From: Leptogorgia sarmentosa
Taxonomy: Eukaryota
Direction: 5' to 3'
NCBI GenBank assembly: GCA_964658305.1
Contig: OZ210885.1
Location: 5,456,001 to 5,520,000 of the forward strand
Length of the DNA: 64,000 nucleotides
Both the position numbers and the translations under genes were made by a program. This document shows, one piece after another, positions 8,963-63,590 of the stretch. Positions within the stretch are counted from its first letter, which is position 1, and every line of letters starts with the position of its first letter. The notes beneath the pieces are model-generated. The model had not been told where the DNA came from, ran no database searches, and saw only the letters and a program-made list of their open reading frames with translations.

Positions 8963-10048
8963 TTAAAAAGGTCTTTCTCCAGTGTGCACTCGTTCGTGTG
9001 TCTTTAAGTGACTTGATTGACTAAATGTCTTACCACATTGTTCACACTGGAAAAGTTTTTCTCCAGTGTGCACTCGTTCGTGTGTCTTCAAGTTACCTGG
9101 GCGACTAAATGTCTTACCACATTGTTCACACTGGAAAGGTTTTTCTCCAGTGTGCACTCGTTCGTGTCTCTTTAAGTGACTTGATTGACTAAATGTCCTA
9201 CCACATTGTTCACACTGGAAAGGTTTTTCTCCAGTGTGCACTCGTTCGTGTGTCTTCAAGTTACTTGGGCGACTAAATGTCTTACCACATTGTTCACACT
9301 GGAAAGGTTTTTCTCCATTGTGTACTCGTTCGTGTGTTTGTAAGTTGATTTGCTGATTAAATGTCTTACCACATTGTTCACATTGGAAAAGTTTTTCTCC
9401 ATTGTGCACTCGTTCGTGTCTCTTCAAGTTACCTTTTTGACTAAATTTCCTGGCACATTGTTCACACTGGAAAGGTTTTTCTCCAGTGTGCACTCGTTCG
9501 TGTATCTTTAACCTGCTTGGGCAACTAAATTTCCTACCGCATTGTTCACACTGGAAAGGTTTTTCTCCAGTGTGCACTCGTTCGTGTGTCTTCAAGTTAC
9601 TTGGGTGATTAAATGTCTTACCACATTGTTCACACTGGAAAGGTTTTTCTCCAGTGTGCACTCGTTCGTGTGTCTGTAAGTTGATTTGCTGATTAAAAGC
9701 TTTAGCACATTGTTCACATTGGAAAGATCTTTCGCCAGTGTGAATTCGTCCGTGTGTCGCCAAATGACTTTTATCTTTGCATGCTTTACCACATTGTTGA
9801 GAGTCTGTTAAACGATAAAAGAATTAGGGGTGAACAGGAAAATAAAGGACAATACTGAATATTTACCATTTTGACTATTTGCTCAGTGGTTTTGTGAATG
9901 GTTGTTTGTATAGTGAAAAACGTTCATTAAACTTACAAATATAATGATCATCATCAGGAATTTCTTCTTCAGTGTCATTCGGACATTCAGTACGGATTGT
10001 AGATTTTCTCGTAATGTGTGAGGGGTGCGGGTGCGACACATCCCCCAT
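8963..10048 (-). CDS. PRDM9-like copy 1, PR/SET-deleted: SSXRD-like exon + 9 intact C2H2 fingers (~317 aa); exons 10048-9937, 9804-8963
   Basis: Exon [37 protein letters not shown] ends in a phase-1 GTAAGT donor. After the aacag acceptor it reads (Y)SQQCGKACKDKSHLATHGRIH, in frame with the finger ORF. TAA replaces the Gln codon of finger 10. Could be a pseudogene. Confidence 0.7.
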
Positions 10049-12322
10049 TATCACAATCTGAAAAAGGTAGAGTTAAGACTCTAAAATTGGCCGTTTCCAG
10101 CGATCTGCTCTCTAAATTCAAACGATTGAAAATTCAATCTATTTATCCGTAAAAACATTCTCGTTGGGATTGTTTTTACCGACCAAACATTTTCTATTGG
10201 AAATCAATCCTACTACATTTCAAAAATGCAGTTGCAAATTGAAACGCTAATATCTTGAGCAATACTTTACGAAAATACATGTATTATACGTCAAAATTTA
10301 AGTTGGGCTTTTATGAATTCAGCTACATTTATTTGAACGATGTAGTGCTTATGCTTTCCTCACTTTACTAAGGGGCTGTATACATGAGCCCGGTTTGGCT
10401 GGCCCGATTCAACGAGGCGCCCGGCTTCATACTAATTTCTTATTAATTATAACAATTCGACTTTACATGCAAACCGGGCTAGCCCACTTAGGTGGGTTCT
10501 CACTTGACTCAAACGGGGCGCCCGGTCAACCGGGATGAATTTTTTCTTTGTTTTTGTAAAAAAAAGCCGAAATTTTGTTTTTATGTTGAAAAAATCAAGA
10601 TGAAAAGGCCGAATTTTTGTACGGCTGAAACGGTTTCACAATCCCTATAAAAAAGCACAGTTTTTTTCAACCCGAAAGGTAAATCTAATTCCTTTTTTAT
10701 GCAAACAATTGAATAAAATATTTTCTAAAAAGACTACCTTTCAAGTTTCAAATGAGATTTTCGAGCTCTGAAGATCTGTGTCGCTTCATTTTTAACTAAC
10801 TAGAATAGATGTCGCTACTTCTTCAGTCGTCTTGAAGGCAGCAAATGATATCAGAATGTCAAAAAAGGATGAAAACCAAAAAATCCTTTGCAAAAACCAA
10901 AAATCCAAAATATTTTCGCAAAAAAAAAACTTTAGCAGGCTCAAAGTTAGTTGTGGTCAGTGGTGCTCCAATGAAAATTAGGAACCAGCTAGTGGCGTGG
11001 ATTTGAATGAATCCACGCCATAATTTTGGCTTCACTTTTTGTTGCCGTGCATTCTCTCCAGTAATTCTTTAAGCTCAGTGATTAAAGTCGTTTCGTATAC
11101 AGGCGGGCGGGAGACACATAATTTTTGGCGACCTAAAAATTTAGTGCTTCTTTGGTGCCGCACTAAATGGTTTATATCGTCCAGACGAATAATTCGTCTC
11201 CCGCCCGTCTTTATGCGAAACGATTTCAAGACATGTTAAAATGCTGGTTGGCCAAAGTCGTCCAGACACATTATTCGTCTGTAAAAACGGCCGTTACGTA
11301 AATATTCTCACTTCGTATCATCGTATCATGATAACAAGTTATAGTTTCAAAAATGGACGGGCATTCTATAATTTGACCTTTGGTTTATTTTGTGAAAAAT
11401 ACGTGCACTTGGACTACAGTCACTATATATATAGTCATGTTGCAATTGTTCCTAAATATAAATATACAAATACATCCAGACATCACAAAATGTAAACAAT
11501 ATAAACTGCGATATATAAACAATGCAGTCCGGAAATCATTTCGTTGATGAATGATAAGGCCTTAAAATATCGGCCAGCAGGCAGTCTGACATTCATAATG
11601 AGTCGGACATTTTAAAAATTATCTCCGATGGCCATGAGGCTAATTTTAAAATCATGTTGACAGTATAGGCTGATTACCACTTGCACGTGTTTTTAAATTC
11701 AGCACGTTCACGCACGTAAAGTATGAAATAACCGAATAACGACTGACAAATTACTGTGTAATGAAGCGAAAATAAAGACATATACGAGCCAAAATAATGT
11801 AGCAAACAAAGGCGTGGCAGAACGCTGTGCAACCGGACAGTAAGGCGCGTTTTAAACGTCGAATTTCTGTCGCATTGAATGCAATTCAAACAATAGAAAA
11901 TGAAATAACTTTGCTCATTAACTATGGTTTGAATTTTATTAGGCGCGACGAAAATTTGAGGTCTAAAATGGGCCTAAACAACATAGAAACATACCTGAAG
12001 AATGACGATTTTTGCTAGGTCTTTGAATATTCAAAATCATTCAGACATTCACAGATTCACTTCAGCTGGCCGAAAGAATCGCTGTCGGATAATGTTCGGA
12101 ATAGCTCGGAAATTAATTGGTCCTTCGAACTTCCAAAGTAATTTGAAACAATTAAAAAATTTTCCTCTTTTAGCTGAACATTCGAATTAAGAAAATAAAT
12201 TAGCACAGCTAGAAAAGACTAATAAATTTGGTAAAATAAATGCGAATTTGGACAGTATTGTATACGCGTATTCGCCAAATTCATCTCGAGTGCGCCGTAA
12301 AGACGTGATAATTGAGGATAAC

Positions 12323-12545: not shown

Positions 12546-12709
12546 AACTCATGGGTGAGACCGCTTTTCTGCGCGTTCATTTTCGAAGGCCGAGCAACTG
12601 ATTGAAATTGACTGGACTGTTAGCTTTCTATGCAATTCACTGCGTGAAGTTTAACAACTGGACTGGTATCGTGAATTGTGATTTCACAATTTTACCAATT
12701 TTTACCTTA

Positions 12710-15573: not shown

Positions 15574-17763
15574 CTAAATGGAGACTAAACGCTTTGCATT
15601 AGTTGCATGACCCCAGTGCCCTCGTTCATGCCTCTTCAAGTCACCTTTTTGACTAAATTTCCTGCCACATTGTTCACACTGGAAAGGTTTTTCTCCAGTG
15701 TGCACTCGTTCGTGTCTCTTCAAGTCACCTTTTTGACTAAATTTCCTGGCACATTGTTCACATTGGAAAGGTTTTTCTCCATTGTGAATTCCTTCGTGTG
15801 TCTTCAAGTTACTTGGGTGATTAAATGTCTTACCACATTGTTCACACTGGAAAGGTTTTTCTCCAGTGTGTACTCGTTCGTGTGTCTTTAAGCTACTTGA
15901 GCAACGAAATGTCTTACCGCATTGTTCACATTGGAAAGGTCTTTCTCCAGTGTGCACTCTTTCGTGTGTCTTCAAGTTACTTGGGCGACTACATGTCTTA
16001 CCACACTGTTCACACTGGAAAGGTTTTTCTCCAGTGTGCACTCGTTCGTGTGTCTTTAAGCTACTTGTGTGACGAAATGTCATACCACATTGTTCACACT
16101 GGAAAGGTTTTTCTCCATTGTGAATTCGTTCGTGTGTCTTCAAGTTACTTGGGTGATTAAATGTCTTACCACATTGTTCACACTGGAAAGGTTTTTCTCC
16201 AGTGTGCACTCGTTCGTGTGTTTGTAAGTTACTTGGGCGACTAAATGTCTTACCACATTGTTCACACTGGAAAGGTTTTTCTCCAGTGTGCACTCGTTCG
16301 TGTGACTTCAAGTGACTTCGTTGACTAAATGTTTTCCCACATTGTTCACACTGAAAAGGTTTTTCTCCAATGTGCACTCGTTGGTGTGACTTCAAGTGAC
16401 TTCGTTGACTAAATGTCTTACCACATTGTTCACACTGGAAAGGTTTTTCTCCAGTGTGCACTCGTTCGTGTCTCTTTAAGCTACTTGTGTGACGAAATGT
16501 CATACCACATTGTTCACACTGGAAAGGTTTTTCTCCAGTGTGTACTCGTTCGTGTCTCTTCAAGTCACCTTTTTGACTAAATTTCCTGGCACATTGTTCA
16601 CACAGGAAAGGTTTTTCTCCATTGTGAATTCCTTCGTGTGTCTTCAAGTTACTTCGGTGATTAAATGTCTTACCACATTGTTCACACTGGAAAGGTTTTT
16701 CTCCAGTGTGCACTCGTTCGTGTGTCTTCAAGTTACTTGGGTGATTAAATGTCTTACCGCATTGTTCACACTGGAAAAGTTTTTCTCCAGTGTGCACTCG
16801 TTCGTGAGTCTTTAAGCTACTTGAGCAACGAAATGTCTTACTGCATTGTTCACATTGGAAAGGTCTTTCTCCAGTGTGCACTCGTTCGTGTCTCTTGAAG
16901 TTACTTGGGTGACTAAATGTCTTACCACATTGTTCACACTGGAAAGGTTTTTCTCCAGTGTGCACTCGTTCGTGTCTCTTCAAGTTACTTGGGCGACTAA
17001 ATGTCTTACCACATTGTTCACACTGGAAAGGTTTTTCTCCAGTGTGCACTCGTTCGTGTGACTTTAAGCTACTTGTGTGACGAAATGTCTTACCACATTG
17101 TTCACACTGGAAAGGTTTTTCTCCAGTGTGCACTCGTTCGTGTGACTTTAAGCTACTTGTGTGACTAAATGTCTTACCACATTGTTCACACTGGAAAGGT
17201 TTTTCTCCAGTGTGCACTCGTTCGTGTCTCTTCAAGTTACTTGGGCGACTAAATGTCTTACCACATTGTTCACACTGGAAAGGTTTTTCTCCAATGTGCA
17301 CTCGTTCGTGTATCTTTAAGCTACTTGGGCAACTAAATGTCCTGCTGCATTGTTCACACTGGAAAGGTTTTTCTCCAGTGTGCACTCGTTCGTGTGTCTG
17401 TAAGTTGATTTGCTGATTAAAAGCCTTACCACATTGTTCACATTGGAAAGATCTTTCGCCAGTGTGAATTCGTCCGTATGTCGCCAAATGACTTTTATCT
17501 TTGCATGCTTTACCACATTGTTGAGAGTCTGTTAAACGATAAAAGAATTAGGGGTGAACAGGAAAATGAAGGACAATACTGAATATTTACCATTTTCAGT
17601 ATTTGCTCAGTGGTTTTGTGAATGGTTGTTTGTATAGTGCAAAACGTTCATTAAACTTACAAATATAATGATCATCATCAGGAATTTCTTCTTCAGTGTC
17701 ATTCGGACGTTCAGTACGGCTTGTAGATTTTCTCGCAATGTGCGGGTGCGACACATCCCCCAT
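15574..17763 (-). CDS. PRDM9-like copy 2, PR/SET-deleted: SSXRD-like exon + 22 C2H2 fingers (~685 aa); exons 17763-17661, 17528-15574
   Basis: Same splice sites and in-frame deletion junction as copy 1. Uninterrupted 637-aa finger ORF with 28-aa periodicity and TGEKPF-type linkers. Confidence 0.8.
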
Positions 17764-18959
17764 TATCACAATCTGAAAAAGGTAGAGTTAAGACTCTGAA
17801 ATGGCCGTTTCCAGCGATCTGCTCTCTAAATTCAAACGATTGAAAATTCAATCTATTTATCCGCGTAAAAACATTCTCTTTGGGATTGTTTTTACCGACC
17901 AAACTTTTTCTATTGGAAATCAATCCTACTACATTTTAAAAATGCAGTTGCAAATTGAAACGCTAATATCTTGAGCATGCAATACTTTACGAAAATACAT
18001 GTATTATACGTCAAAATTTAAGTTGGGCTTTTATGAATTCAGCTACATTTATTTGAACGATGTAGCGCTTATGCTTTCCTCACTTTACTAAGGGGCTGTT
18101 TACATGAGCCCGGTTTGGCTGGCCCGCTTCAACGAGGCGCCCGGCTTCATACTAATTTCTTATTAATTATAACAATTCGACTTTACATGCAAACCGGGCT
18201 AGCCCGCTTAGGTGGGATCTCACTCTACTCAAACGGGGCGCCCGGTCAACCGGGATGAATTTTTTCTTTGTTTTTGTAAAAAAAAGCCGAAATTTTGTTT
18301 TTATGTTGAAAAAATCAAGATGAAAAGGCCGAATTTTTGTACGGCTGAAACGGTTTCACAATCCCTATAAAAAAGCACAGTTTTTTTCAACCCGAAAGGT
18401 AAATCTAATTCCTTTTTTATGCAAAAAATTGAATAAAATATTTTCTAAAAAGAATACCTTTCAAGTTTCAAATGAGATTTTCGAGCTCTGAAGATCTGTG
18501 TCGCTTCATTTTTAACTAACTAGAATAGATGCCGCTACTTCTTCAGTCGTCTTGAAGGCAGCAAATGATATCAGAATGTCAAAAAAGGAAGAAAACCGAA
18601 AAATCCTTTGCAAAAACCAAAAATCCAAAATATTTTCGCCAAAACAAATCTTTAGCGGGCTCAAAGTTAGTTGTGGTCAGTGGTGCTCCAATGAAAATTA
18701 GGAACCAGCTAGTGGCGTGGATTTGAATGAATCCACGCCATAATTTTGGCTTCACTTTTTGTTGCCGTGCATTCTCTCCAGTAATTCTTTAAGCTCAGTG
18801 ATTAAAATCGTTTCGTATACAGGCGGGCGGGAGACACATAATTTTTGGCGAGCTAAAAATTTAGTGCTTCTTTGGAGACGCACTAAATGGTTTATATCGT
18901 CCAGACAAATATTTCGTCTCCCGCCCGTCTTTATGCGAAACGATTTCAAGACATCTTAA

Positions 18960-20907: not shown

Positions 20908-20914
20908 AATTAAT

Positions 20915-26249: not shown

Positions 26250-29200
26250 CTAGTGCACTCGTTCGTGCTTCTTTAAGCTGCTTGATTGACTAAATGTCTT
26301 ACCACATTGTTCACACTGGAAAGGTTTTTCTCCAGTGTGCACTCGTTCGTGTGTCTTTAAGTGACTTGGTTGACTAAATGTCTTACCACATTGTTCACAC
26401 TGGAAAGGTTTTTCTCCAGTGTGCACTCGTTCGTGTGTCTTTAAGTGACTTGGTTGACTAAATGTCCTACCACATTGTTCACACTGGAAAGGTTTTTCTC
26501 CAGTGTGCACTCGTTCGTGTGTCTTTAAGTGGCTTGGTTGACTAAATGTCTTATCACATTGTTCACAGTGGAAAGGTTTTTCTCCAGTGTGCACTCGTTC
26601 GTGTCTCTTCAAGTTACATTTCAGAGTAAATTTCCTGCCACATTTTTCGCACTGGAAAGGTCTTTCTGGCATATGAAGTCGTTCATGTGTCTCTAAGTTG
26701 ATTTGCCGATTAAATGCCTTGCCACATTGTTGACATTGGAAAGGTTTTTCTCCAGTGTGAACTCGTTCGTGCTTCTTTAAGCTGCTTGATTGACTAAATG
26801 TCTTACCACATTGTTCACACTGGAAAGGTTTTTCTCCAGTGTGCACTCGTTCGTGTGTCTTTAAGTGACTTGGTTGACTAAATGTCCTACCACATTGTTC
26901 ACAGTGGAAAGGTTTTTCTCCAGTGTGCACTCGTTCGTGTCTCTTCAAGTTACATTTCAGACTAAATTTCCTGCCACATTTTTCACATTGGAAAGGTCTT
27001 TCTGGCATATGAAGTCGTTCATGTTTCTCTAAGTTGATTTGCCGATTAAATGCCTTACCGCATTGTTCACATTGGAAAGGTCTTTCTGGCATATGAAGTC
27101 GTTCATGTCTCTCTAAGTTGATTTGCCGATTAAATGCCTTGCCACATTGTTGACATTGGAAAGGTTTTTCTCCAGCGTGAACTCGTTCGTGTGTCTTTAA
27201 GTGACTTGGTTGATTAAATGTCCTACCACATTGTTCACACTGGAAAGGTTTTTCTCCAGTGTGCACTCGTTCGTGTGTCTTTAAGTGACTTGGTTGACTA
27301 AATGTCCTACCACATTGTTCACAGTGGAAAGGTTTTTCTCCAGTGTGCACTCGTTCGTGCTTCTTTAAGCTGCTTGATTGACTAAATGTCTTACCACATT
27401 GTTCACACTGGAAAGGTTTTTCTCCAGTGTGCACTCGTTCGTGTGTCTTTAAGTGACTTGGTTGACTAAATGTCCTACCACATTGTTCACACTGGAAAGG
27501 TTTTTCTCCAGTGTGAACTCGTTGGTGTGTCTGTAAGTGACTTGGTTGACTAAATGTCCTACCACATTGTTCACACAGAAAAGGTTTTTCTCCAGTGTGA
27601 ACTCGTTCGTGTGTCTTTAAGTTACTTGGGTGACTAAATGTCCTACCACATTGTTCACACAGAAAAGGTTTTTCTGCAGTGTGAACTCGTTCGTGTGTCT
27701 TTAAGTTACTTGGGTGATTAAATGTCTTACCACATTGTTCACATTGGAAAGGTCTTTCTCCAGTGTGAATTCGTCCGTGTGTCGCCAAATTACTTTTACT
27801 TTTGAATGGTTTACCACATTTCTGGCATAGAAAAGGCGTTTCCCCGCTGTTAACTCTACACCAATGTCTTTCCTCATTGTCAATTTGCTCGTGTTCGTGT
27901 TCCCTTCTACTAATATGGGAATTGAGGTAATCTTCGCTGGTGTATTTTCTACTACACTGAGGACATTCCCATAGTTCTGTGCACGTCAACAATGGACACC
28001 TTCGTACGTGAGATTCGAGGTAATTGAAATAGGTAAACATTCTTCCACAGTGTTTGCAAGTATGACCGCCTTCAAAAAGACAAAGTATGAATTAAATAAA
28101 ACAAGCATTGAATGGGATGTGGAGAGGAGATACGAATGTTTGTTTTGACACATTACTGGGTGTTTCCATTGTTATTTCCAACCAAGTTTTATTTTGGTTG
28201 AGAAGCGCGTGTTCAAAAACACAACGAATTTTTCCCGCCTAAACTCAAATGGTTTTTTATAACCAATAAGATCGCGTGTTCGCCATTTCAAACGGCAATT
28301 TTTGCACGGCAGATAACCGAAGGCTGAGGCAAATAACACAAACCGAGGCCTGAATAATTCCCCATATCCTACGAGGACCGAATTCAATAATTGTTTTATT
28401 ATTTATTTGTATATAGCGCTTGCAAAAACACGCAATTGCAAGGTACTGGAAATAGAACAATAATATAGTGTTCGCAAGATTGAATAAGCCAATCAGACTA
28501 CAAGAGAAAATGTTCTTATAGTTGTTGTACATTTCAAGGTCGCAGTCAAAGCAATTCAACATAGCTAAAGAAGGATTAAATCAAACAAATTTATTTCAAC
28601 TCAATATAAACGTTTGGAAGAACCTTTCCTTTGAGGAAGCCATTTGTATTTTCCACTATTTTTCCGCTTTTGGCATATGCAGAATAAATTAGTCGACGTC
28701 ATAATGTCGTATAATTTTCAATATACGACATAATTACGTCATAATGTCGTATATGAGGATTTATTGCACTGCTCTTAACCAATCAATGCAAAACTCTTGA
28801 ATTGTTTGAAATAAATAACAATATTATTTACTTGCCAACCTTATCATATTATACTAATGAATGGTACGTCATGCCCAAATAAGGTGTGTGACGTCATTTC
28901 CACATCCTGGTCGACGCCATATTGTGTTGGCCAAAGAACTCTATTCAATAATTCGACGACAAACGAGAATCCACAATTGGAAAACAACTCGCCTTTCGGG
29001 CTTGTGTTTCCACACATTTCTCGTTCTCCCAGACTTGCACTCGTGTTTACATAACTCGATGTAAACATGGAAAATGTTATATAAAACTTAAATAACGTCT
29101 AGTTTATACCTTCAAAGCGCTTTCCCTCTTGTTTTTCGTCCTCCTCGTATAGCGGTATGCCAAGGTCTTCTGCATATTCATCTCCATACCATACCAGGAG

Positions 29201-32200
29201 TTCACCATTTGCTCTGATCTCTTTATACACTCTGTAGTAAATATCTCCATGATATTGGAAGGCAACTATATTTTGCTCGTCCTCGCATCGCGAACAGTTT
29301 ACAAAACGCATCCAATTGCTTTGAGATGGATCTTTGCCGTCGATATAATACTGGATCTTTCCAAATTTTACGATCTGTTAATAAATCAGTTGGCAATTCA
29401 TGAATAATTTATGAAGAAACACAACAAAAATCATGAACATGAGGAAGCTTGTTGAAACCCGGCAGATTCACATAAAGTTTGATTATTTTCATAAACAATT
29501 ACTCATATGGTTTCCGTGTTTGGATGGCCTGATCCAAACACGCGAGAATGCTGCGAGAGTTGGTCTGTGGAAATTATATGAGAAATAGGAACCAGTGGCG
29601 TCAGCAACGGTAAAATCTGCCATGTTTCTGGCTTCACCCCTTTGAACCCAAAAAGTTGAGTGCACTCTCTCCAGTCTTTCTTTAGCTCAGTGTCTGCGAG
29701 CCCGTAAATCCAATATGGCGGCAAGAAAGAGGAATATATTAAACTATCATGAATTGGATTCTTTATCATCAGTTGTTTTATACAACATATATTTTTCTTT
29801 TAAATCTTTCCAGCTTTTCAGTACTTTATTTGTTATGTGCAGTGTAAACACAACCACTTCAGAATCCACACAAAGCTTTTTTATGTACTGTAAGCAATGA
29901 TTATCATCGACAACTACATCTTGCTTGTACCTCTGGTAATCATAATTATCTTTAAAAACGTCACACATAATACAGGCTCATTATACTTTTAAATAAACCA
30001 GAAAATATGGACTTCCCACAAGTTACAATTCATAATTCGCGCGAAGCTTTAATTCGCGCAAAATAATTCACCCGAAGTAAAACAACCACGGAGTTAGCCG
30101 CTGAAATTGCTGATTGTTTTTAGCATATCCCATCAGGCAATACTGGCCTAGATTCTGCAGGTCATGGCGATTATTTTGATACCAAACACTTGGCATTATG
30201 GCGTGCCTTTTTGTTACTATACTATTTAACAATTAGATTACGAGCTCGAGATTTCTATGAGGTGATAGTTGATGAGGGCGAAGCCCGAATCAACTATCAT
30301 CTCGTAGAAATCGAGAGCGAGTAATCTAATTGTTTTAGTAGAATCAGAGATCAAACATGAAAATATTGCAAAAAATAATTTAAAAACGCGTCTCAGAATA
30401 CATTTTCTTTAACGAAAATTCACATATTTTGCTACTCGCTATGTATCGAGGAATAGATATCGAGTAGAGTAGCCAATCAAATTGCAGCATTTGCAATAGT
30501 ATACGAGTATGATTCTACTAATGAATGTTACGTCATCAGTGCGTTGGGCTACTATATGCCATGACAGCAAAGTGGCCAAATTAAATGTTTCCACTGTTCA
30601 CAAGCTTAGTAATATGCCAGTTGTTGAGTCAGCAGCTATTTTAGCTTTGTTCATCTCAAATATTGACAATTTTTCTATTTGTATAAACAAAATGCTAGAG
30701 ATTTAGATAAAGAGATTTGCCGCGTAGGACGCAGGCGCACTATAGTACAAGATGGCCGAAGCTGGTGCATTTCCTCTATTTAGCTGCAAGTCCCACTCTG
30801 AAGCGTCGCCATATTGCATACATAAATATTTCATTCACCGCGAACACGTGCTCACTTCGAGAAGTATTAGAACGTGCGGTAATTCGCCAAACACGCGTGA
30901 AGTCTTTCATTAATACTTCGAGAAAAAGTATAATTTCCTTTTAATATCATGGTAGTCAATAATTTCAGTGCAATTTCAATATCAAACAAATCAAAACCCA
31001 TCGTAAATTGATACGAGAAACAAAAATTTTACTGTACTTTTACCTGTTTTTAAATTTACCGCTCGCATATCGCGGGCTCGAAACCGTGGTATTTGAAATT
31101 AAATTACACACTTGTGTAATTAATGTTTAATTCACACAGGTGTTGAAGCTTTTTAGCCAATCAGCGTCCAGGAAATTGACTACAGTTATATTATCAGAAA
31201 AACTCATGGTGGTATTGCAGAGACATTATAGATTTAAAGGAATATCATCGGACCTATTTTAAAAGAAAATGCTTGAAATAGGTTTTTTCAAACACGACGT
31301 TAAACGATTATACATGCACGAACATTTAGTTTAATGCAGTGGCGTCTAGGGGGCCATGGCCGCCCCTAGAATTTGAGGCTTGTCACGGAAATTTTTAGAA
31401 ATTTAATACTTGTCGGAAAAGCTAGTCGATCATCTTCTAAAAATTATTGCTTTTGTTTGGTGATATTAAGTCACGCTGGCGTCCACCTCGTATTTTTATA
31501 TCCACTTCTGAAACGATAATGAAATAGTCGTTTCCGGCGATTTAAAGGTCCTAAATGTTCAAAATTTTCCCGCGAGGGGCCAACCAGATAGTTAGCTTTC
31601 GTGGGCACATTTCTAAGACACTGATGACCATGCCCTTTACTCGTGCAAAATCCCGTAACACCCCCGCCCCATTGTCATGTACTGGTAAATGTAAAATTTT
31701 GGTTTCGGAAAAATCTGGTTTTGCCCCCCCCCCCCTTGGAAAAGCTCCCACGACGCCACTGTATTTAGGAAAAGTTTTATCACAAACGTTTTCGAAGTTA
31801 AATTTTCTGTCATTGAAACTGATAATTCTTATGTTGTTTAGCCACTTTAAAAAAAAAAATAAGTTGGGCTACTTCGTGTTCCACAAATATAGTTGCATCA
31901 TCAGTTATGAAAACGAGGGGTGCATGTACACATATATTTCTATTAGAGCTTTCAATTGTATTTACCTGCCACATGTACGATGTATCCTCTCCTTCAGTCT
32001 CCAGAACTTTCACCCCACGATATGGTCCAAAACGAGTATTAACCTCGATCTTTTTCTTAGTAAAGACTCCCAGACCAGCTCCGGGAATCCTTGAACGTCT
32101 CACACACAAACTTTTAGGTAGCGACGTGATTGCTTCAGGCATCTTCCCTCTTTCCACGACATTGTCGTCCATGATGTTGAATTTATGTGTTTCGCATTCG

Positions 32201-33001
32201 CCATAATAAACATCATCACATTGTTCACAGTCTGTTAAACGATTAAAGAATTAGGGGTGAATAGGAAAATGAAGGACAATATACGATTTTTGGACGAGGC
32301 TGAGCAAAATATCGTGATTTATCTGTGGCGAGCAGATCAATTATTTGCCGATGGCAAAGCCCAATAATTGATCTGCGAGCCACTGATAAATCACGATATT
32401 TTGCGACAGCCAAGTTCAATAATTGTTTTATTATTCAGTTTATTATTTACGATCGTTTGTCACTCGCTTCGACGTAAAATTTCCCGACCACGGCAAAGTT
32501 TACTTTTGGACGCCAATAAGTCCTTTGAATTATAAGTACTCTTGAAAAAAAGTTAAAGCAGATTCGGTTGCTTTCTTGGTGTTTTCGGGCCGTCTTTTTC
32601 GTGTGGAAGATCTAATCCAGTAATCGGACGCAAACAAATTTAAGTCAACTGCGCATGAGCAAGCCATTATTTGAAGCTGAGCGAGTTTTGAACTAAATGC
32701 GCATGCTCAGTAAACTGTTTGCACCAATTATTTGCAGTTGAAGTGACATTTGTAGGCAGTATTTGTAGGTAAATTAACCAATCAAAATTGAGTAAATAAT
32801 AAACTGAATAATAATACTGAATATTTACCATTTTAACTATTTGCTCAGTGGTTTCGGGAATGGTTGTTTGTATAATGAAGAAAGTTCATTAAACTTACAA
32901 ATATAATGATCATCATCATCAATTTCTTCTTCAGTGTAATTCGGACGTTCAGTACTCCTTGAAGATCTTCTCGGAATGTGCGGGTGCGACACATCCACCA
33001 T
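26250..33001 (-). CDS. PRDM9: PRDM9-like copy 3, histone methyltransferase with SSXRD-like exon, zinc knuckle, PR/SET, post-SET fingers and 19-finger array (~817 aa); exons 33001-32899, 32231-31966, 29374-29110, 28069-26250
   Basis: All introns are GT-AG with consistent phases (1,0,1). Translation includes [40 protein letters not shown]...[21 protein letters not shown]...FGPYRG...SYMWQ-IVK...[40 protein letters not shown]...[16 protein letters not shown]. This matches PRDM9/PRDM7 motifs and exon layout. Orthology not tested. Confidence 0.88.
30227..30518 (+). mobile_element. TIR-less hairpin element inserted in intron 2 of copy 3 only (related start at ~63779)
   Basis: Starts TAACAATTAGA; hairpin centred on GGGCGAAGCCC. 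Empty site atacTATTgaatg at ~43105 in copy 4. Confidence 0.7.
31337..31761. mobile_element. Intronic MITE with CAGTGGCGTC/GACGCCACTG ends (paralogue 43894-44323)
   Basis: 10-bp TIRs shared with the 38418-38570 element; TSD not clear. Confidence 0.6.
32281..32815 (+). mobile_element. TIR-less hairpin element in intron 1 of copy 3 (same insertion at 45288-45807 in copy 4)
   Basis: Inserted in ggaCAAT^actg (empty in copies 1 and 2) and ends with AATAAT. Internal inverted repeat AAAATATCGTGATTTATC.../...GATAAATCACGATATTTT. Confidence 0.75.
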
Positions 33002-34452
33002 TATCATAATCTGAAAAAGGTAGAGTTAAGACTCTAAAATGACCGTTTAAACGATTGAAAACTCAATCTATTTATCCGTAAAAACATTTTCTTTCGTATT
33101 GTTTTTATGATCCAAGCTTTTTCTATTGAAAATCAATCCTACGCGAGATTGAAGGAAAAATCAATCTTAAAGGAGTTACTTTTCAATCAAATTTCAATCG
33201 AATTATCTTCATACATTGCCAGAAATCGTCCCCACGCGAATTAATTATACTCGCCCCAGTCGAATTTTTCGACTTTCTAGCTAAATGGTTTATATCGTCC
33301 CGACGAATAATTCGTCTCCCGCTCGTCTTTATGCGAAACGATTTCAAGATATCTTAAAATGCCGGTTGGCCAAAGTCGTCCAGACACATTATTCGTCTGT
33401 AAAAACGGCCGTTACGTAAATATTCTCATTTCGTATCATCGTATGATGATAACAAGTCATAGTTTCAAAAATGAACGGGCATTCTATAATTTGACCTTTG
33501 GTTTATTTTGTGAAAAATACGTGCACTTGGACTACAGTCACTATATATATAGTCATGTTGCAATTGTTCCTAAATATAAATATACAAATACATCCAGACA
33601 TCACAAAATGTAAACAATATAAACTGCGATATAAACAATGCAGTCCGGAAATCATTTCGTTGATGAATGATATGGCCTTAAAATATCGGCCAGCAGGCAG
33701 TCTGACATTCAGAATGAGTCGGACATTTTAAAAAATTATCTCCGATGGCCATGAGGCTAATTTTGAAATCATGTTGACAGTATAGACTGATTTCCCCTTG
33801 CACGTGTTTTTAAATTCAGCACGTTCACTCACGACGCACGTAAAGTATGAAATAACCGAATAACGACTGACAAATTACTGTGTAATGAAGCGAAAATAAA
33901 GACATATACGAGCCAAAATAATTCAGCGAACAAAGGCGTCGCAGAACGCTGTGCAACCGGACAGTAAGGCGCGTTTTAGACGTCGAATTTCCGTCGCATT
34001 GAATGCAATTCAAACAATAGAAAATGATTAAATAACTTTGCTCATTAACTATGGTTTGAATTTTATTAGGCGCGACGAATATTTGACGTCTAAAATGGGC
34101 CTAAACAACATAGAAACATACCTGAAGGATGACGATTTTTGCTAGGTCTTTCAATATTCGAAAATCATTCAGACATTCACAGATTCACTTCACCTGGCCG
34201 AACGAATCGCTGTCGGACAATGTTCGGAATAGCTCGGAAATTAATTGTCATTTGAATTTCCAAAGGAATTTGAAACAATTAAAAAATTTTCCTCTTTCAG
34301 CTGAACATTCGAATTAAGAAAATAAATCAGTTGCACAGCTAGAAAAGACTAATAAATTTGGTAAAATAAATGCGAATTTGGACAGTATTGTATACGCGTA
34401 TTCGCCAATTTCATCTCGAGTGCGCCGTAAAGACGTGATAATTGAGGATAAT

Positions 34453-39992: not shown

Positions 39993-42900
39993 TCATGTCA
40001 CCTTTTTGACTAAATTTCCTGCCACATTGTTCACACTAGAAAGGTTTTTCTCAGTGTGCACTCGTTCGTGTCTCTTTAAACTACTTGAGCAACGAAATGT
40101 CTTACCGCATTGTTCACATTGGAAAGGTTTTTCTCCAGTGTGTACTCGTTCGTGTTTCTTTAAGTCACCTTTCTGGCTAAATGTCTTACCACATTGTTCA
40201 CACTGGAAAGGTTTTTCCCCAGTGTGCACTCGTTCGTGTCTCTTTAAGCTATGTGAGCAACGAAATGTCTTACCACATTGTTCACATTGGAAAGGTCTTT
40301 CTCCAGTGTGCACTCGTTCGTGTCTCTTCAAGTCACTTTTTTGACTAAATTTCCTGGCACATTGTTCACACTGGAAAGGTCTTTCTCCATTGTGAATTCC
40401 TTCGTGTGTCTTCAAGTTACTTGGGTGATTAAATGTCTTACCACATTGTTCACACTGGAAAGGTTTTTCTCCAGTGTGCACTCGTTCGTGTCTCTTCAAG
40501 TCACCTTTTTGACTAAATTTCCTGCAACATTGTTCACACTGGAAAGGTTTTTCTCCAGTGTGTACTCGTTCGTGTTTCTTTAAGTCACCTTTCTGGCTAA
40601 ATGTCTTACCACATTGTTGACACTGGAAAGGTTTTTCTCCATTGTGCACTCGTTCATGCCTCTTCAAGTCACCTTTTTGACTAAATTTCCTGCAACATTG
40701 CTCACACTGGAAAGGTTTTTCTCCAGTGTGCACTCGTTCGTGTGTCTTTAAGCTACTTGGGGAACGAAATGTCTTACCACATTGTTCACATTGGAAAGGT
40801 CTTTCTCCAGTGTGCACTCGTTCGTGTGTCTTTAAGTAACCTTTCTGGCTAAATGTCTTACCACATTGCTCACACTGGAAAGGTTTTTCTCCAGTGTGCA
40901 CTCGTTCGTGTGTCTGTAAGTTGATTTGCTGATTAAATGCCTTACCGCATTGTTCACATTGGAAAGGTCTTTCTGGAAGATGAAGTCGTTCATGTCTCTC
41001 TAAGTTGATTTGCTGATTAAATGCCTTGCCACATTGTTCACATTGGAAAGATCTTTCGCCAGTGTGAATTCGTCGGTGTTTCGCCAAATTACTTTTACTT
41101 TTGAATGGTTTACCACATTTCTGGCATTGAAAAGGCGTTTCCCCGCTGTTAACTCTACACCAATGTCTTTCCTCATTGTCAATTTGCTCGTGTTCGTGTT
41201 CCCTCCTACTAATATGGGAATTAAGGTAATCTTCGCTGGTGTATTTTCTACTACACTGAGGACATTCCCATAGTTCTGTGCACGTCAACAATGGACACCT
41301 TCGTACGTGAGATTCCAGGTAATTGAAATAGGTAAACATTCTTGCACAGTGTTTGCAAGTATGACCGCCTTGAAGAAGACAAAATATGAATTAAATAAAA
41401 CAAGCATTGAATGGGATGTGGAGGGGAGATACGAATGTTTGTTTTGACACATTAGTTGTGTTTCAATTGTTATTTCCAACCAAGTTTTATTTTGGTTGAC
41501 AAGCGCGTGTTCAAAAACACAACGAATTTATCCCGCCTAAAATCAAATGTTTTTTTATAACCAATAGGATCGCGTATTCGTCATTTCAAACGGCAATTTT
41601 TGCACGGTAACAGGCATCCAGAATCGAGACACGGCAAATTCAAAGAAATTTTTTCGTCTTTTTCACAAGTTTTGTGCCAGAAAACGTTGTACATATTTGG
41701 TAATATACTAGGGCTACGTTTTTAGCCAAGTTTATACTAATGAATGGTACGTCATGCCCAAATAAGGCGTGTGACGTCACTTCCACATCCTGGTCGACGC
41801 CAGATTGTGTTGGCCAAAGAACTCTATTCAATAATTCGACGACAAAAGAGAATCCACAAATGGAAAGCAACTCGCCTTTCGGGCTTGTGTTTCAAAACAT
41901 TTCTCGTTCTCCCAAACTTGCACTCGTGTTTACATAACTCGATGTAAACATGGAAAATGTTATATAAAACTTAAATAACGTCTAGTTTATACCTTCAAAG
42001 CGCTTTCCCTCCTGTTGTTCGTCGTCCTCCTCGTATAGCGGTATGCCAAGGTCTTCTGCATATTCATCTCCATACCATACCAGGAGTTCTCCATTTGCTC
42101 TGATCTCTTTATACACTCTGTAGTAAATCTCTCCATGATATTGGAAGGCAACTATATTTTGCTCGTCCTCGCATCGCGAACAGTTAACAAAACGCATCCA
42201 ATTGCTTTGAGATGGATCTTTGCCGTCGATATAATACTGGATCTTTCCAAATTTTACGATCTGTTAATAAATCAGTTGGCAATTCATGAATAATTTAAGA
42301 AGAAACACAACAAAAATCATGAACATGAGGAAGCTTGTTGAAACCCGGCTGATTCATATAAAGTTTCATTATTTTCATAAACAATTACTCATATGGTTTC
42401 CGTGTTTGGATGGCCTGATCCAAACACGCGAGGATGCTGCGAGAGTTGGGCTGTGGAAATTATATGAGAAATAGGAACCAGTGGCGTCAGCAACGGTAAA
42501 ATCTGCTATGTTTCTGGCTTTACCCCTTTCAACCCAAAAAGTTGAGTGCACTCTCTCCAGTCTTTCTTTAGCTCAGTGTCTGCGAGCCCGTAAATCCAAT
42601 ATGGCGGCAAGAAAGAGGAATATGTTAAACTATCATGAATTGGATTCTTTATCATCAGTTGTTTTATACAACATATATTTTTCTTTTAAGTCTTTCCAGC
42701 TTGTCAGTACTTTGTTTGTTATGTGCAGTGTAAACACAACCGCTTCAGAATCCACACAAAGCTTTTTTATGTACTGTAAGCAATGATTATCATCGACAAC
42801 TACATCTTGCTTGTACCTCCGGTAATCATAATTATCTTTAAAAACGTCACACATAATACAGGCTCATTATACTTTTAAATAAACCAGAAAATATGGACTT

Positions 42901-45900
42901 CCCACAAATTACAATTCATAATTCGCGCGAAGCTTTAATTGGCGCAAAATAATTCACCGGAAGTAAAACGGCCACGGAGTTAGCCGCTGAAATTGCTGAT
43001 TGTTTTTAGCATATCCCTTCAGGCAATACTGGCCTAGATTCTGCAGGTCATGGCGATTATTTTGATACCAAACACTTGGCATATGGCGTGCCTTTTTGTT
43101 ACTATACTATTGAATGTTAAACGTCATCGCGTGCGTTGGGCTACTATATGCCATGATAGCAAAGTGGTCAAATTAAATGTTTCCACTGTTCACAAGCTTA
43201 GTAATATGCCAGTTGTTGAGTCAGCAGCTATTTTAGCTTTGTTCATCTCAAATATTGACAATTTTTCTATTTGTATAAACAAAATGCTAGAGATTTAGAT
43301 AAAGAGATTTGCCGCGTAGGACGCAGGCGCACTATAGTACAAGATGGCCGAAGCTGGTGCATTTCCTCTATTTAGCTGCAAGTCCCACTCTGAAGCGTAG
43401 CCATATTGCATACATAAATATTTCATTCACCGCGAACACGTGCTCACTTCGAGAAGTATTAGCACGAGCGGTAATTCGCCAAACACGCGTGAAGTCTTTC
43501 ATTAATACATCGAGAACAAGTATAATTTCCTTTTAATATCATGGTAGTCAATAATTTCAGTGCAATTTCAATATCAAACAAATCAAAATCCATCGTAAAT
43601 TGATACGAGAAACAAAAATTTTACTGTACTTTTACCTGTTTTTAAATTTACCGCTCGCATATCGCGGGCTGGAAACCGTGGTATTTGAAATTAAATTACA
43701 CACTTGTGTAATTAATGTTTAATTCACACAGGTGTTGAAACTTTCTAGCCAATCAGCGTCCAGGAAATTGACTACAGTTATATTATCAGAAAAACTCATG
43801 GTGGTATTGCAGAGACATTATAGATGTAAAGGAATATCATTTTTTCAAACACGACGTTAAACGATTATACATGCACGAACATTTAGTTTAATGCAGTGGC
43901 GTCTAGGGGGCCATGGCCGCCCCTACAATTTGAGGCTTGTCACGGAAATTTTTAGAAATTTAATACTTGTCGGAAAAACTAGTCGATCATCTTCTAAAAA
44001 TTATTGCTTTTGTTTGGTGATATTAAGTCACGCTGGCGTCCACCTCGTATTTTTATATCCACTTCTCAAACAATAATGAAATAGTCGTTTCCGGCGATTT
44101 AAAGGTCCTAAATGTTCAAAATTTTCCCGCGAGGGGCCAACCAGATAGTTAGCTTTCGTGGGCACATTTCTAAGACACTGATGACCATGGCCTTTACTCG
44201 TGCAAAATACCGTAACACCCCCGGCCCATTGTCATGTACTGGTAAATGTAAAATTTTGGTTTCGAAAAAATCTGGTTTTGCACCCCCCTCCCCCCCTTTG
44301 GAACAGCTCCCACGACGCCACTGTTTTTAGGAAAAGTTTTATCACAAACGTTTTCGAAGTTAAATTTTCTGTCATTGAAACTGATCATTCTTATGTTGTT
44401 TAGCTACTTTTTAAAAAAAAATAAGTTGGGCTACTTCGTGTTCCACAAATATAGTTGCATCATCAGTTATGAAAACGAGGGGTGCATGTACACATATATT
44501 TCTATTACAGATTTCAGTTGTATATACCTGCCACATGTACGATGTATCCTCTCCTTCAGTCTCCAGAACTTTCACCCCACGATATGGTCCAAAACGAGTA
44601 TTAACCTCGATCTTTTTCTTAGTAAAAACTCCCAGACCAGCTCCGGGAATCCTTGAACGTCTCACACACAAACTTTTAGGTAGCGACGTGATTGCTTCAG
44701 GCATCTTCCCTCTTTCCACGACATTGTCGTCCATGATGTTGAATTTATGTGTTTCGCATTCGCCATAATAAACATCATCACATTGTTCACAGTCTGTTAA
44801 ACGATTAAAGAATTAGGAGTGAATAGGAAAATGAAGGACAATAAACAATTATTGGATGAGGCTGAGCATGATATCAAGAATTATTCAGACCGAGGTCAAT
44901 GTTATCTGCCAAAGCGAAGCTGAGGCGGATAACATTGACCGAGGTCTGAATAATTCTTGATATCATGCGAAAGCCGAATCCAATAATTGTTTTATTATAC
45001 ATTTAAAAGAGTGCTCACTTTCATTCAGCGAAGCAAATCTCTGCAGGTCATTGTTTGTTTGTTTGTTTTTTCGCGCGCTTTTAGCTTCAAGCTTTTGACA
45101 GCGCTGGGGCTTGGGCACGAGAGAGTCCAATAATTTTTTTTTTGGATGCAAGTTCGATCCAAAAAAATAATTATTGGACGCTGATGGCGTCATCGGCGGA
45201 AAATACGTAATAAATACCGAATACTGAGAATTAGCCGGTGCTTTCTGACCAATCAGGAACGAGAATAAATTTTAAATGTATAATAATATACGATTATTGG
45301 ACGAGGCTGAGCAAAATATCGTGATTTATCTGTGGCGAGCAGATCAATTATTTGCCGATGGCAAAGGCCAATAATTAAAAAAAATCACGATATTTTGCGA
45401 CTGCCGAGTTCAAAAATTGTTTTATTATTCAGTTTATTATTTACGATCGTTTGTCACTCGCTTCGGCGTAAAATTTCCCGACCACGGCAAAGTTTACTTT
45501 TGGACGCCAATAAGTCCTTTGAATTATAAGTACTCTTGAAAAAAAGTTAAAGCAGATTCGGTTGCTTTCTTGGTGTTTCCGGGGTCTTTTTCGTGTGGAA
45601 GATCTAATCCAGTAATCGGACGCAAACAAATTTAAGTCAACTGCGCATGAGCAAGCCATTATTTGAAGCTGAGCGAGTTTTGAACTAAATGCGCATGCTC
45701 AGTAAACTGTTTGCACCAATTATTTGCAGTTGAAGTGACATTTGTAGGCAGTATTTGCAGGTAAATTAACCAATCGAAATTGAGTAAATAATAAACTGAA
45801 TAATAATACTGAATATTTACCATTTTAACTATTTGCTCAGTGGTTTTGGGAATGGTTGTTTGTATAATGAAGAAAGTTCACTAAACTTACAAATATAATG

Positions 45901-45993
45901 ATCATCATCATCAATTTCTTCTTCAGTGTAATTCGGACGTTCAGTACTCCTTGAAGATCTTCTCGGAATGTGCGGGTGCGACACATCCCCCAT
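39993..45993 (-). CDS. PRDM9: PRDM9-like copy 4 with SSXRD-like exon, zinc knuckle, PR/SET and 13-finger array (~670 aa); exons 45993-45891, 44793-44528, 42260-41993, 41368-39993
   Basis: Same exon structure and intact PR/SET motifs as copy 3. A 1-nt deletion near 40051 frameshifts only the last finger. Confidence 0.85.
44843..45287 (+). mobile_element. Second related TIR-less hairpin element stacked at the same intron-1 site, copy 4 only
   Basis: Starts AAACAATTATTGGATGAGGCTGAGC and ends ATAATAAT. Inverted arms GCATGATATCAAGAATTATTCAGACC / GGTCTGAATAATTCTTGATATCATGC. Confidence 0.75.
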
Positions 45994-46205
45994 TATCACA
46001 ATCTGAAAAAGGTAGAGTTAAGACTCTAAAATGGCCGTTTCCAGCGATCTGCTCCCTAAATTCAAACGATTGAAAATTCAATCTATTTATCCGTAAAAAC
46101 ATTTTTTTCCTATTGTTTTTATGGTCAAAGCTTTTTCTATTGAAAATCAATTTTGCGCGAGATTGAAGGAAAAATCAATCTAAAAGGAGTTACTTTTCAA
46201 TCAAA

Positions 46206-53881: not shown

Positions 53882-55159
53882 CTAAATGGAGACTAAACGC
53901 TTTGCATTAGTTGCATGACCCCAGTGCCCTCGTTCATGCCTCTTCAAGTCACCTTTTTGACTAAATTTCCTGGCACATTGTTCACACTGGAAAGGTTTTT
54001 CTCCAGTGTGCACTCGTTCGTGTCTCTTCAAGTCACCTTTTTGACTAAATTTCCTGGCACATTGTTCACACTGGAAAGGTTTTTCTCCATTGAGAGTTCC
54101 TTCGTGTGTCTTCAAGTTACTTGGGTGATTAAATGTCTTACCACATTGTTCACACTGGAAAGGTTTTTCTCCAGTGTGCACTCGTTCGTGTGTCTTTAAG
54201 CTACTTGTGTGACGAAATGTCATACCACATTGTTCACATTGGAAAGGTCTTTCTCCAGTGTGCACTCGCTCGTGTGTCTTCAAGTTACTTGGGCGACTAA
54301 ATGTCTTACCACATTGTTCACACTGGAAAGGTTTTTCTCCAGTGTGCACTCGTTCGTGTCTCTTCAAGTTACTTGGGCGACTAAATGTCTTACCACATTG
54401 TTCACACTGGAAAGGTTTTTCTCTAGTGTGTACTCGTTCGTGTGTTTGTAAGTTGATTTGCTGATTAAATGTCTTACCACCTTGTTCACATTGGAAAGGT
54501 TTTTCTCCAGTGTGTACTCGTTCGTGTCTCTTCAAGTTACATTTCAGACTAAATTTCCTGCCACATTTTTCACACTGGAAAGGTTTTTCTCCAGTGTGCA
54601 CTCGTTCGTGTGTCTTCAAGTTACTTGGGCGACTAAATGTCTTACCACATTGTTCACACTGGAAAGGTTTTTCTCCAGTGTGCACTCGTTCGTGTCTCTT
54701 TAAGCTACTTGGGCAACTAAATGTCCTGCTGCATTGTTCACACTGGAAAGGTTTTTCTCCAGTGTGCACTCGTTCGTGTGTCTGTAAGTTGATTTGCTGA
54801 TTAAAAGCCTTACCACATTGTTCACATTGGAAAGATCTTTCGCCTGTGTGAATTCGTCCGTGTGTCGCCAAATGACTTTTATCTTTGCATGCCTTACCAC
54901 ATTGTTGAGAGTCTGTTAAACGATAAAAGAATTAGGGGTGAAAAGGAAAATGAAGGACAATTATACTGAATATTTACCATTTTGACTATTTGCTCAGTGG
55001 TTTTGTGAATGGTTGTTTGTATAGTGAAAAACGTTCATTAAACTTACAAATATAATGATCATCATCAGGAATTTCTTCTTCAGTGTCATTCGGACATTCA
55101 GTACGGCTTGTAGATTTTCTCGTAATGTGTGAGGGGAGCGGGTGCGACACATCCCCCAT
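53882..55159 (-). CDS. PRDM9-like copy 5, PR/SET-deleted: SSXRD-like exon + 11 finger repeats, two with lost Zn ligands (~380 aa); exons 55159-55048, 54912-53882
   Basis: Same deletion junction as copies 1 and 2. Fingers CEQG... (Cys>Gly) and HEGTL (His>Leu) are degenerate. Confidence 0.72.
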
Positions 55160-61941: not shown

Positions 61942-63590
61942 TCACATTGTTGACATTAGGAAGATCTTTCGCCTCCGTTGAGACCAAATGGAGACTAAAC
62001 GCTTTGCATTAGTTGCATGACCCCAGTGCCCTCGTTCATGCCTCTTCAAGTCACCTTTTTGACTAAATTTCCTGCCACATTGTTCACACTGGAAAGGTTT
62101 TTCTCCAGTGTGAATTCCTTCGTGTGTCTTCAAGTTACTTGGGTGATTAAATGTCTTACCACATTGTTCACACTGGAAAGGTTTTTCTCCAGTGTGCACT
62201 CGTTCGTGCGTCTTCAAGTGACTTCGTTGACTAAATGTCTTACCACATTGTTCACAATGGAAAGGTTTTTCTCCAGTGTGTACTCGTTTGTGTCTCTTCA
62301 AGTCACCTTTTTGACTAAATGTCCTGGCACATTGTTCACACTGGAAAGGTTTTTCTCCATTGTGAATTCCTTCGTGTGTCTTCAAGTTACTTGGGTGATT
62401 AAATGTCTTACCACATTGTTCACACTGGAAAGGTTTTTCTCCAGTGTGAACTCGTTCGTGTGTCTTCAAGTTACTTGGGCGACTAAATGTCCTACCACAT
62501 TGTTCACAGTGGAAAGGTTTTTCTCCAGTGTGCACTCGTTCGTGTGTCTTTAAGCTACTTGAGCAACGAAATGTCATACCGCATTTTTCACATTGGAAAG
62601 GTTTTTCTGCAGTATGCACTCGTTCGTGTCTCTTTAAGCTACTTGAGCAACGAAATGTCTTACCGCATTGTTCACATTGGAAAGGTCTTTCTCCAGTGTG
62701 TACTCTTTCGTGTTTCTTTAAGTCACCTTTCTGGCTAAATGTCTTACCACATTGTTCACACTGGAAAGGTTTTTCTCCATTGTGCACTCGTTCATGCCTC
62801 TTCAAGTCACCTTTTTGACAAAATTTCCTGCAACATTGTTCACACTGGAAAGGTTTTTCTCCAGTGTGCACGCGTTCGTGTGTCTTTAAGCTACTTGGGG
62901 AACGAAATGTCTTACCACATTGTTCACATTGGAAAGGTCTTTCTCCAGTGTGCACTCGTTCGTGTGTCTTTAAGTGACTTGGTTGACTAAATGTCTTACC
63001 ACATTGCTCACACTGGAAAGGCTTTTCTCCAGTGTGCACTCGTTCGTGTCTCTTCAAGTTACTTGGGCGACTAAATGTCTTACCACATTGTTCACACTGG
63101 AAAGGTTTTTCTCCAGTGTGCACTCGTTCGTGTGTCTGTAAGTTGATTTGCTGATTAAATGCCTTACCGCATTGTTCACATTGGAAAGGTCTTTCTGGAA
63201 GATGAAGTCGTTCATGTTTCTCTAAGTTGATTTGCTGATTAAATGCCTTGCCACATTGTTCACATTGGAAAGATCTTTCGCCAGTGTGAATTCGTCCGTG
63301 TTTCGCCAAATTACTTTTACTTTTGAATGGCTTACCACATTGCTGGCATTGAAATGGCGTTTCCCCGCTGTTAACTCTACACCAATGTCTTTCCTCATTG
63401 TCAATTTGCTCGTGTTCGTGTTCCCTCCTACTAATATGGGAATTAAGGTAATCTTCGCTGGTGTATTTTCTACTACACTGAGGACATTCCCATAGTTCTG
63501 TGCACGTCAACAATGGACACCTTCGTACGTGAGATTCCAGGTAATTGAAATAGGTAAACATTCTTCCACAGTGTTTGCAAGTATGACCGC
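61942..63590 (-). CDS. PRDM9: Last exon of PRDM9-like copy 6 (post-SET fingers + 16-finger array); upstream exons outside window
   Basis: Acceptor ttgaag| at 63591/63590, then (G)[24 protein letters not shown] as in copy 3. The TAG of copies 2/5 is TGG here, extending the C-terminus by 14 aa. Confidence 0.8.

Follow-up and report, generated by a model that had tools for sequence, protein, structure and literature searches.

One in-frame join between zinc knuckle and first array finger removed the SET domain from three copies of a PRDM9-like gene cluster in the octocoral Leptogorgia sarmentosa

The 64,000 nucleotides (nt) of Leptogorgia sarmentosa DNA considered here (GenBank assembly GCA_964658305.1, contig OZ210885.1, forward-strand positions 5,456,001 to 5,520,000; 'the window' is this whole stretch) carry, on the minus strand, six tandem copies of one PRDM9-like zinc-finger gene that stretch from near 6,660 beyond the last window position, and half of these copies have lost their enzymatic part. 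In copies 1, 2 and 5, the acceptor of the exon that elsewhere encodes a zinc knuckle runs directly into finger 1 of the zinc-finger array, with the frame kept; these three copies descend from one deletion event, and a spliced transcript of the copy 5 type crosses the join. Our overall reading, which we hold with moderate confidence, is that this single knuckle-finger 1 join persists in a set of transcribed, weakly constrained zinc-finger-only paralogs spread by unequal crossing-over. Proteins of this sort would bind DNA, and perhaps their siblings, without marking histones.

The junction itself is easily recognised. Its motif occurs at three places on the minus strand, with first exon bases at 9804, 17528 and 54912, exactly where an earlier reading made from the letters alone (the sequence-only reading) had placed a near-identical join, and the intact knuckle motif occurs at two, 32231 and 44793, again on the minus strand. 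Measured against copy 3 the deletion spans 4,402 bp, and against copy 4 it spans 3,665 bp, in good agreement with the 3.7-4.4 kb originally proposed; gone are the knuckle, the PR/SET domain, the post-SET fingers and two introns. Splice phase and frame do survive, as had been claimed, since models spliced at GT..AG introns of 132, 132 and 135 nt give copies 1, 2 and 5 a single open frame that begins in the upstream exon and continues into the array. Thirteen of the first 15 junction bases agree with the knuckle, and from base 9-10 onward the sequence is that of finger 1. Compared over 69 nt, the fused finger shows 7 mismatches to finger 1 of copies 3, 4 and 6 and no fewer than 18 to every other finger in them, which identifies finger 1 as the donor. 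The proposal that the join ran across a shared CAATGTG survives only in part: similarity between CxxC-coding stretches does guide the join, but the exact 7-nt match exists only with finger 1 of copy 6 (copies 3 and 4 offer 6 nt), and two bases beside the join fit neither parent cleanly, so that the crossover can be placed only within an imperfect CxxC-coding match of about 13 nt. Such similarity is abundant, since the first 13 coding nt of the knuckle recur exactly at 63 finger starts across the window (65 matches, from which the two knuckles themselves are subtracted), and the broader idea that the deletion exploited the likeness of knuckle and finger is borne out. Because the CxxC codons of knuckle and finger lie in the same phase, any join of this kind preserves the frame, and we infer that the preserved frame simply follows from register and is no sign of selection. 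Two other accounts of the junction were considered and dropped. A second shared motif upstream of finger 1, TTAACAG, cannot be the breakpoint, as the short copies retain knuckle bases past it; and a processed (retro) pseudogene does not fit, given that the intron before the junction, the upstream exon and the flanks are all retained and that the join falls mid-exon, not at an exon border.

Since the region is rich in repeats, and knuckle and finger match exactly over short stretches, it is of course reasonable to ask whether the junction is simply an assembly collapse of similar sequences, a suggestion to which we now give virtually no credence, as contigs from three studies cross the junction with its specific bases and refute it. 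Four of the 17 listed runs were examined. Contigs from X1 (9736-9854) and X4 (9736-9951), which are DNA-like runs of two studies, read through the junction into the intron, each with a single difference; a third study supplied X8 and X9, two samples whose contigs leave out precisely 9804-9937 (GT..AG, minus strand; short side 123 and 121 letters) as well as 10057-11995. None of these splice joints was seen in the X1 and X4 contigs, and it is from this exact skipping of GT..AG introns alone, and not from run records, that we read X8 and X9 as RNA. The X8 and X9 contigs differ from copy 1 at four bases in the fused exon and two in the first coding exon, the same counts that separate copy 1 from copy 5, and the four listed difference positions agree with copy 5; a copy-5-type spliced transcript over the junction therefore exists. 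The sequence-only reading had staked itself on a transcript that uses this junction, and spliced junction contigs are present in both X8 and X9. One X8 contig also joins an alternative GT donor at 10738, within the upstream intron, to 10057, with no in-frame coding gain seen. The junction motif had no matches in metagenome contigs, a search that is uninformative for an animal locus.

That the cluster is of PRDM9 type is clearest from copies 3 and 4, which have four coding exons each: the first is short, the second encodes the knuckle and the first part of PR/SET, the third continues PR/SET, and the fourth holds two post-SET fingers ahead of an array of 84-nt units. The PR/SET exons of both copies match Pfam PRDM2_PR, find PRDM9 as their best solved-structure match (E 7.9e-11 and 9.4e-26) and carry GPY, IYY and WYG motifs that align to the equivalents of the catalytic residues Tyr276, Tyr341 and Tyr357 of PRDM9. 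The second PR/SET exon is 82% identical to a protein of Paramuricea clavata (P0001), 76% to one of Dendronephthya gigantea (P0002) and 66-69% to two of Xenia sp. (P0003 and P0004), and a tree sets copies 3 and 4 inside the octocoral PRDM9 clade (support 100/99), apart from fish PRDM14, the sole non-PRDM9 PRDM in that tree. In all five first coding exons, 24-30 amino acids match the SSXRD of octocoral PRDM9 by tblastn (E 1e-3 to 1e-8); the exon aligns to the SSXRD-knuckle border of those proteins, and a profile built on it retrieves PRDM9-like proteins. Pfam returned no match for this exon, which corresponds to no more than the 3' part of the SSXRD exon in other octocorals, and the short copies carry another residue in place of the conserved SSXRD Tyr. 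Copies 1, 2 and 5, from which both PR/SET and knuckle are deleted, do not themselves count as PRDM9. No ancestral KRAB was found in any copy by tblastn or with a seven-sequence profile in six frames (best E 2.9, where a partial positive control reached only E 0.4), and the exon spliced upstream of the first coding exon contains a stop in frame and offers no usable ATG in that frame, which points to the same absence. On these grounds even the 'full' copies probably resemble KRAB-less, 5'-truncated paralogs and not the hotspot-directing gene. Diversity at the contact positions (-1, +2, +3 and +6) is 0.31-0.38 across the six arrays, at the low end of the 0.29-1.0 given for full-length cnidarian genes and within the truncated range in the accessible part of a cnidarian survey (bioRxiv 10.64898/2026.09.07.749791). 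When the knuckle exon was used to look for homologs, none of 20 candidates reached E<=0.001. Another Xenia protein, P0007, keeps an SSXRD remnant and PR/SET with the knuckle apparently absent, through internal loss or a gene-model error.

The case for one origin is strong, because the junction is the same in all three short copies and their hybrid finger, scored against all three SET-type finger 1 sequences, has five derived amino-acid changes in common (C>S, P>A, F>C, S>D and N>H), its first Cys and core Phe having been lost in the common ancestor of copies 1, 2 and 5. In the 5' module, 17 sites separate copies 3 and 4 from copies 1, 2 and 5, three two-copy sites conflict, and the short copies differ from one another by 1.8-2.7%. 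The sequence-only reading was right to see a single event here. Three independent deletions at a recurrent hotspot would be mechanically easy, with the knuckle start matching most fingers over 13 nt, but the use of finger 1 in all three, the derived bases shared on both sides of the join and the 17 upstream sites refute this, unless later gene conversion overwrote separate junctions, and we think it very improbable. The short copies also lack insertions found in the first coding intron of copies 3 (32267-32812) and 4 (44830-45800), at a site flanked by a short ATT repeat, so that the short lineage likely split off before these arrived; to regard the short intron as a second deletion is unwarranted, since it is most likely the empty site. 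Three additional bases in copy 5 at this site may be a footprint or a product of slippage. The upstream intron of copy 4 holds a 128-nt inverted repeat pair (46203-46330 and 46655-46782; 99% identical), likely a young non-autonomous transposon.

How the form then spread is less tidy than the 'amplified three times' first suggested, and we would replace that phrase with one event and at least two later spreads with mosaic flanks. Copies 1, 2 and 5 group together only over the final 1.4 kb or so upstream of the junction, and the upstream flank of copy 5 lies 0.4-1.3% from that of the SET-bearing copy 3 in several 600-column windows, a mosaic that likely fits unequal crossing-over or conversion inside the cluster better than three clean duplications. 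Array units have crossed between the classes too: two units of copy 2 are identical to units of copy 6 (c2_21=c6_12, c2_23=c6_16), and for 11 of 43 short-copy units the nearest outside neighbour sits in a SET-type copy. It could be objected that the deletion is real and the count of three inflated by haplotypes assembled in tandem, leaving fewer loci. Indeed, 33281-37430 and 56268-60409 (4.2 kb) are 98.2% identical, a copy-5 variant at 9737 appears in X8 and X9 and is unlisted in X1 or X4, so that copies vary among samples, and minisatellite arrays assemble poorly. We nevertheless consider this quite unlikely, for array length and unit order differ in all copies, flank similarity changes partners along the repeat as unequal crossing-over predicts, and the order along the cluster (full, short, full, full, short, short) shows no repeating pattern.

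We part company with the sequence-only reading most clearly over its hint of retention by selection, since register suffices to keep the frame, the hybrid finger has lost its Cys1 and Phe, and structural residues of the short arrays are hit about as often as neutrality predicts. With terminal array units excluded from diversity and private-mutation counts (82 units kept), four of the 11 private array mutations in short copies fall at structural residues (4.1 expected under neutrality), as against none of 13 in SET-type copies (4.8 expected, P=0.0025), a contrast with Fisher p=0.031. The non-repetitive coding part of the short copies has five nonsynonymous and two synonymous changes in about 567 nt (1.2%), and their neighbouring intron has 45 substitutions in 3,516 (1.3%; 1,172 columns in three copies) and four indels. 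Between copies 3 and 4, the SET exons show 4 differences in 498 nt (0.8%), three of them synonymous; the introns of these two copies differ by 2.6-4.4%. The arrays are long and open for 9-22 fingers, as had been noted, but they are not wholly sound: intact Cys2His2 units past finger 1 number 9 of 10 in copy 1, which has a stop in its last unit, 22 of 22 in copy 2 and 9 of 11 in copy 5, so that the copy which is transcribed has two broken fingers. With only 11-12 private changes, the short arrays are young through unit turnover, and the identical units across classes mean that frames can stay open without selection on the short copies.

Several observations weigh against so relaxed a picture. 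The lineage is older than its three copies, as its 5' module diverges by 7-12% (with alignment ends counted) from that of copies 3 and 4, and it has 15 finger cores of its own. When terminal lesions are counted, the structural contrast becomes 5 of 12 versus 2 of 15 (p=0.19), and the base test draws on 24 mutations in all. Were the three short coding regions to change at the rate of the intron, about 6.7 frame-breaking events would be expected in them, and one is observed (P=0.009), a deficit that is gone only on the array clock of 12 private changes (1.6 expected, P=0.52). Of the private changes in short arrays, 4 of 11 are synonymous where 15% are expected, which hints at some constraint, and all three short copies retain an intact start codon and intact splice sites. 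On balance these small counts favour constraint on the SET-bearing copies and relaxed constraint on the SET-less ones, with weak selection for open arrays a possibility.

The most serious competitor is that selection retains the SET-less copies as zinc-finger-only regulators, which occupy sites of, or multimerise with, their siblings and so blunt histone marking, or which are new binders. The missing frame-breaks just described fit such a role, as do the copy-5-type spliced contigs in both RNA-like runs examined, the presence of the SET-less form in three of the window's six copies and of the junction in three studies, and contact positions that are no less diverse in the short arrays (0.35-0.38) than in SET-bearing ones (0.31-0.34), with proportions of nonsynonymous and synonymous change (pN/pS) of 0.30/0.23 at contacts and 0.07/0.18 elsewhere; moreover, a zinc-finger-only human PRDM9 is nuclear and pulls down the full-length protein, in the part of that report available (PMC5705219). 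Structural residues that mutate at the neutral rate, an N-terminal part that evolves at the intron rate, the broken fingers of copy 5 and the replaced SSXRD Tyr all tell against it, and with no KRAB found in the siblings these are unlikely to be hotspot-directing genes. We regard selective retention as somewhat unlikely. A stronger version, in which the window holds a natural, transcribed, enzyme-dead lineage of octocoral PRDM9 paralogs kept as a sequence-specific competitor or a new transcription factor, strikes us as less likely still.

In the relaxed reading that we prefer, CxxC-coding bases of the knuckle and of array finger 1 would have recombined to give the in-frame deletion, by microhomology-mediated joining within one gene or by unequal crossover between tandem copies, two repair routes that should leave an identical product, and the SET-less form would then have spread by unequal crossing-over. 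All of this would be ordinary birth-and-death turnover of a PRDM9 cluster. The predicted product consists of an SSXRD remnant of about 35 amino acids, one dead finger and 9-22 further fingers; if made, it would be expected to enter the nucleus and to recognise DNA sites that overlap with the sites of its SET-bearing siblings, where it would lay down neither H3K4me3 nor H3K36me3. Open frames were most likely kept by the recent origin of array units and by unit exchange with constrained siblings.

The features are collected in Table 1. Predicted proteins from the ATG are about 317, 685 and 380 amino acids long for copies 1, 2 and 5, the hybrid finger of copy 2 has an additional His1 to Tyr change, and copy 4 has a frameshift within its last array unit. 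We presume a SET domain in copy 6, whose 5' exons lie beyond the window end. Donors homologous to that of exon 0 of copy 1 lie at 19961, 34122, 49802 and 57098, and a tandem repeat of variable copy number stands upstream of exon 0 in every copy, near the likely promoter. Array ends are damaged in both classes alike (near 26250, 40050 and 8963), with a stop in the last linker of copy 3 and the last-unit lesions of copies 4 and 1, and copies 2, 5 and 6 have one terminal read-out in common. Just past the 3' end of the cluster, on the plus strand, lies a two-exon neighbour gene (4693-4970 and 5838-6054), the first exon of which gives a weak beta/gamma-crystallin match (Pfam Crystall, E 0.11).

Table 1. 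Parts of the PRDM9-like cluster and its upstream repeat, in window positions
Feature	Position	Strand	Details
Copy 1, exon 0, likely 5' untranslated region	11995..12120	-	donor 11995; 5' end approximate
Copy 1, first coding exon, shortened SSXRD-type	9937..10057	-	ATG at 10048; phase-1 donor; from tblastn and exon profile
Copy 1, intron	9805..9936	-	132 nt, GT..AG; without the insertions of copies 3 and 4; from spliced contigs
Copy 1, deletion junction	9790..9804	-	knuckle-exon acceptor and first bases fused to array finger 1 in CxxC-coding stretch
Copy 1, fused exon	8963..9804	-	broken hybrid finger, 9 intact C2H2 fingers, stop in next unit
Copy 2, first coding exon	17661..17772	-	
Copy 2, fused exon	15574..17528	-	junction 17528, broken hybrid finger, 22 C2H2 units
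Copy 3, SET-bearing	26250..33010	-	exons 33010-32899, 32231-31966, 29374-29110, 28069 onward
Copy 3, exon content			32231-31966 knuckle and PR/SET part 1; 29374-29110 PR/SET part 2; 28069 onward post-SET fingers and array
Copy 4, SET-bearing	39993..46002	-	exons 46002-45891, 44793-44528, 42260-41993, 41368 onward
Copy 5, first coding exon	55048..55168	-	copy matched by spliced contigs
Copy 5, fused exon	53882..54912	-	junction 54912, broken hybrid finger, 11 units, 9 intact
Copy 6, last exon	61942..63590	-	post-SET fingers and array
26-nt-period repeat	12320-12550, 20910-21230, 34450-34770, 50130-50300, 57430-57740		

Why should a handful of SET-less coral paralogs matter? The large KRAB zinc-finger family of vertebrates is assumed to have begun with the loss of SET from a PRDM9-like ancestor, and in the literature we found no breakpoint of a PRDM9 SET-loss event is described; here such a breakpoint can be seen at base resolution, with both parents adjacent. 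The CxxC codons common to knuckle and fingers have one phase, and a recombination that fuses the two parts therefore cuts out the enzyme with no loss of frame; this is a general route, and a likely one from PRDM9 to zinc-finger-only genes. It predicts an uncounted class of genes with an SSXRD exon and an array and no SET. If protein is made, the locus offers a natural test of SET-less arrays competing with PRDM9-type siblings, and should the competitor or transcription-factor version prove true, it would be an independent, base-resolved replay of the SET loss presumed to have founded the KRAB zinc-finger genes, by a mechanism repeatable in any PRDM9 cluster.

Set beside known systems, the cluster is at once familiar and new. 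The cnidarian survey, which covered 28 genomes and required a SET domain, lists truncated Prdm9 paralogs as kXSZ, XSZ, SZ, sZ, S and s, all of them, in its accessible part, 5' or 3' losses of whole exons only (bioRxiv 10.64898/2026.09.07.749791). Like the octocoral paralogs described there, the window copies are recent tandem duplicates under birth-and-death by unequal crossing-over, and copies 3 and 4, with their three catalytic Tyr and low-range contact-residue diversity, resemble the KRAB-less XSZ forms. Copies 1, 2 and 5, in contrast, arose by an internal, mid-exon deletion that left an SSXRD remnant and zinc fingers, a form that could not be listed where only SET-domain loci were kept. 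A vertebrate survey likewise built gene models only with a SET match, as far as its accessible text goes (PMC5519329), so that such genes would be missed by both. Our literature search found no report of a SET-less cnidarian PRDM9 derivative, with subscription papers and bioRxiv supplements outside its coverage; and among 62 matches to the SSXRD profile there was no second SET-less form, since all those with zinc-finger Pfam domains also have a PR domain, and most without zinc-finger domains are single-exon fragments, so that absence is not thereby demonstrated. Partial and pseudogenised copies are reported from salmonid PRDM9 clusters, in the portion of that paper available (PMC11703093). The window shares its SSXRD-knuckle-SET-post-SET order with the octocoral PRDM9 proteins P0001, P0002, P0003 and P0004, unlike which its copies have no detectable N-terminal ancestral KRAB and lack most of the SSXRD exon, three of them also lacking knuckle and SET. 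The zinc-finger-only human PRDM9 already mentioned is similar in being an array without SET, and it binds itself as well as the full-length protein (PMC5705219); it is, however, a laboratory construct in human cells. KRAB zinc-finger genes, for which an origin by SET loss from a PRDM9 ancestor, followed by amplification in clusters, is proposed in the accessible text of one paper (PMC4592553), and to which the coelacanth, again from a source available in part, adds ancestral-KRAB zinc-finger genes without SSXRD or SET (PMC8835667), are a further point of comparison. The short copies are like them in having no SET and in pairing a short N-terminal exon with a tandem array in one exon; they differ in carrying an SSXRD remnant with no KRAB found and in numbering only three in the window. 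The short copies are thus not members of that family, given that no KRAB was found, but a parallel to its first step, and they add to the truncated PRDM9 paralogs a structural variant that is new and whose mechanism of birth is clear.

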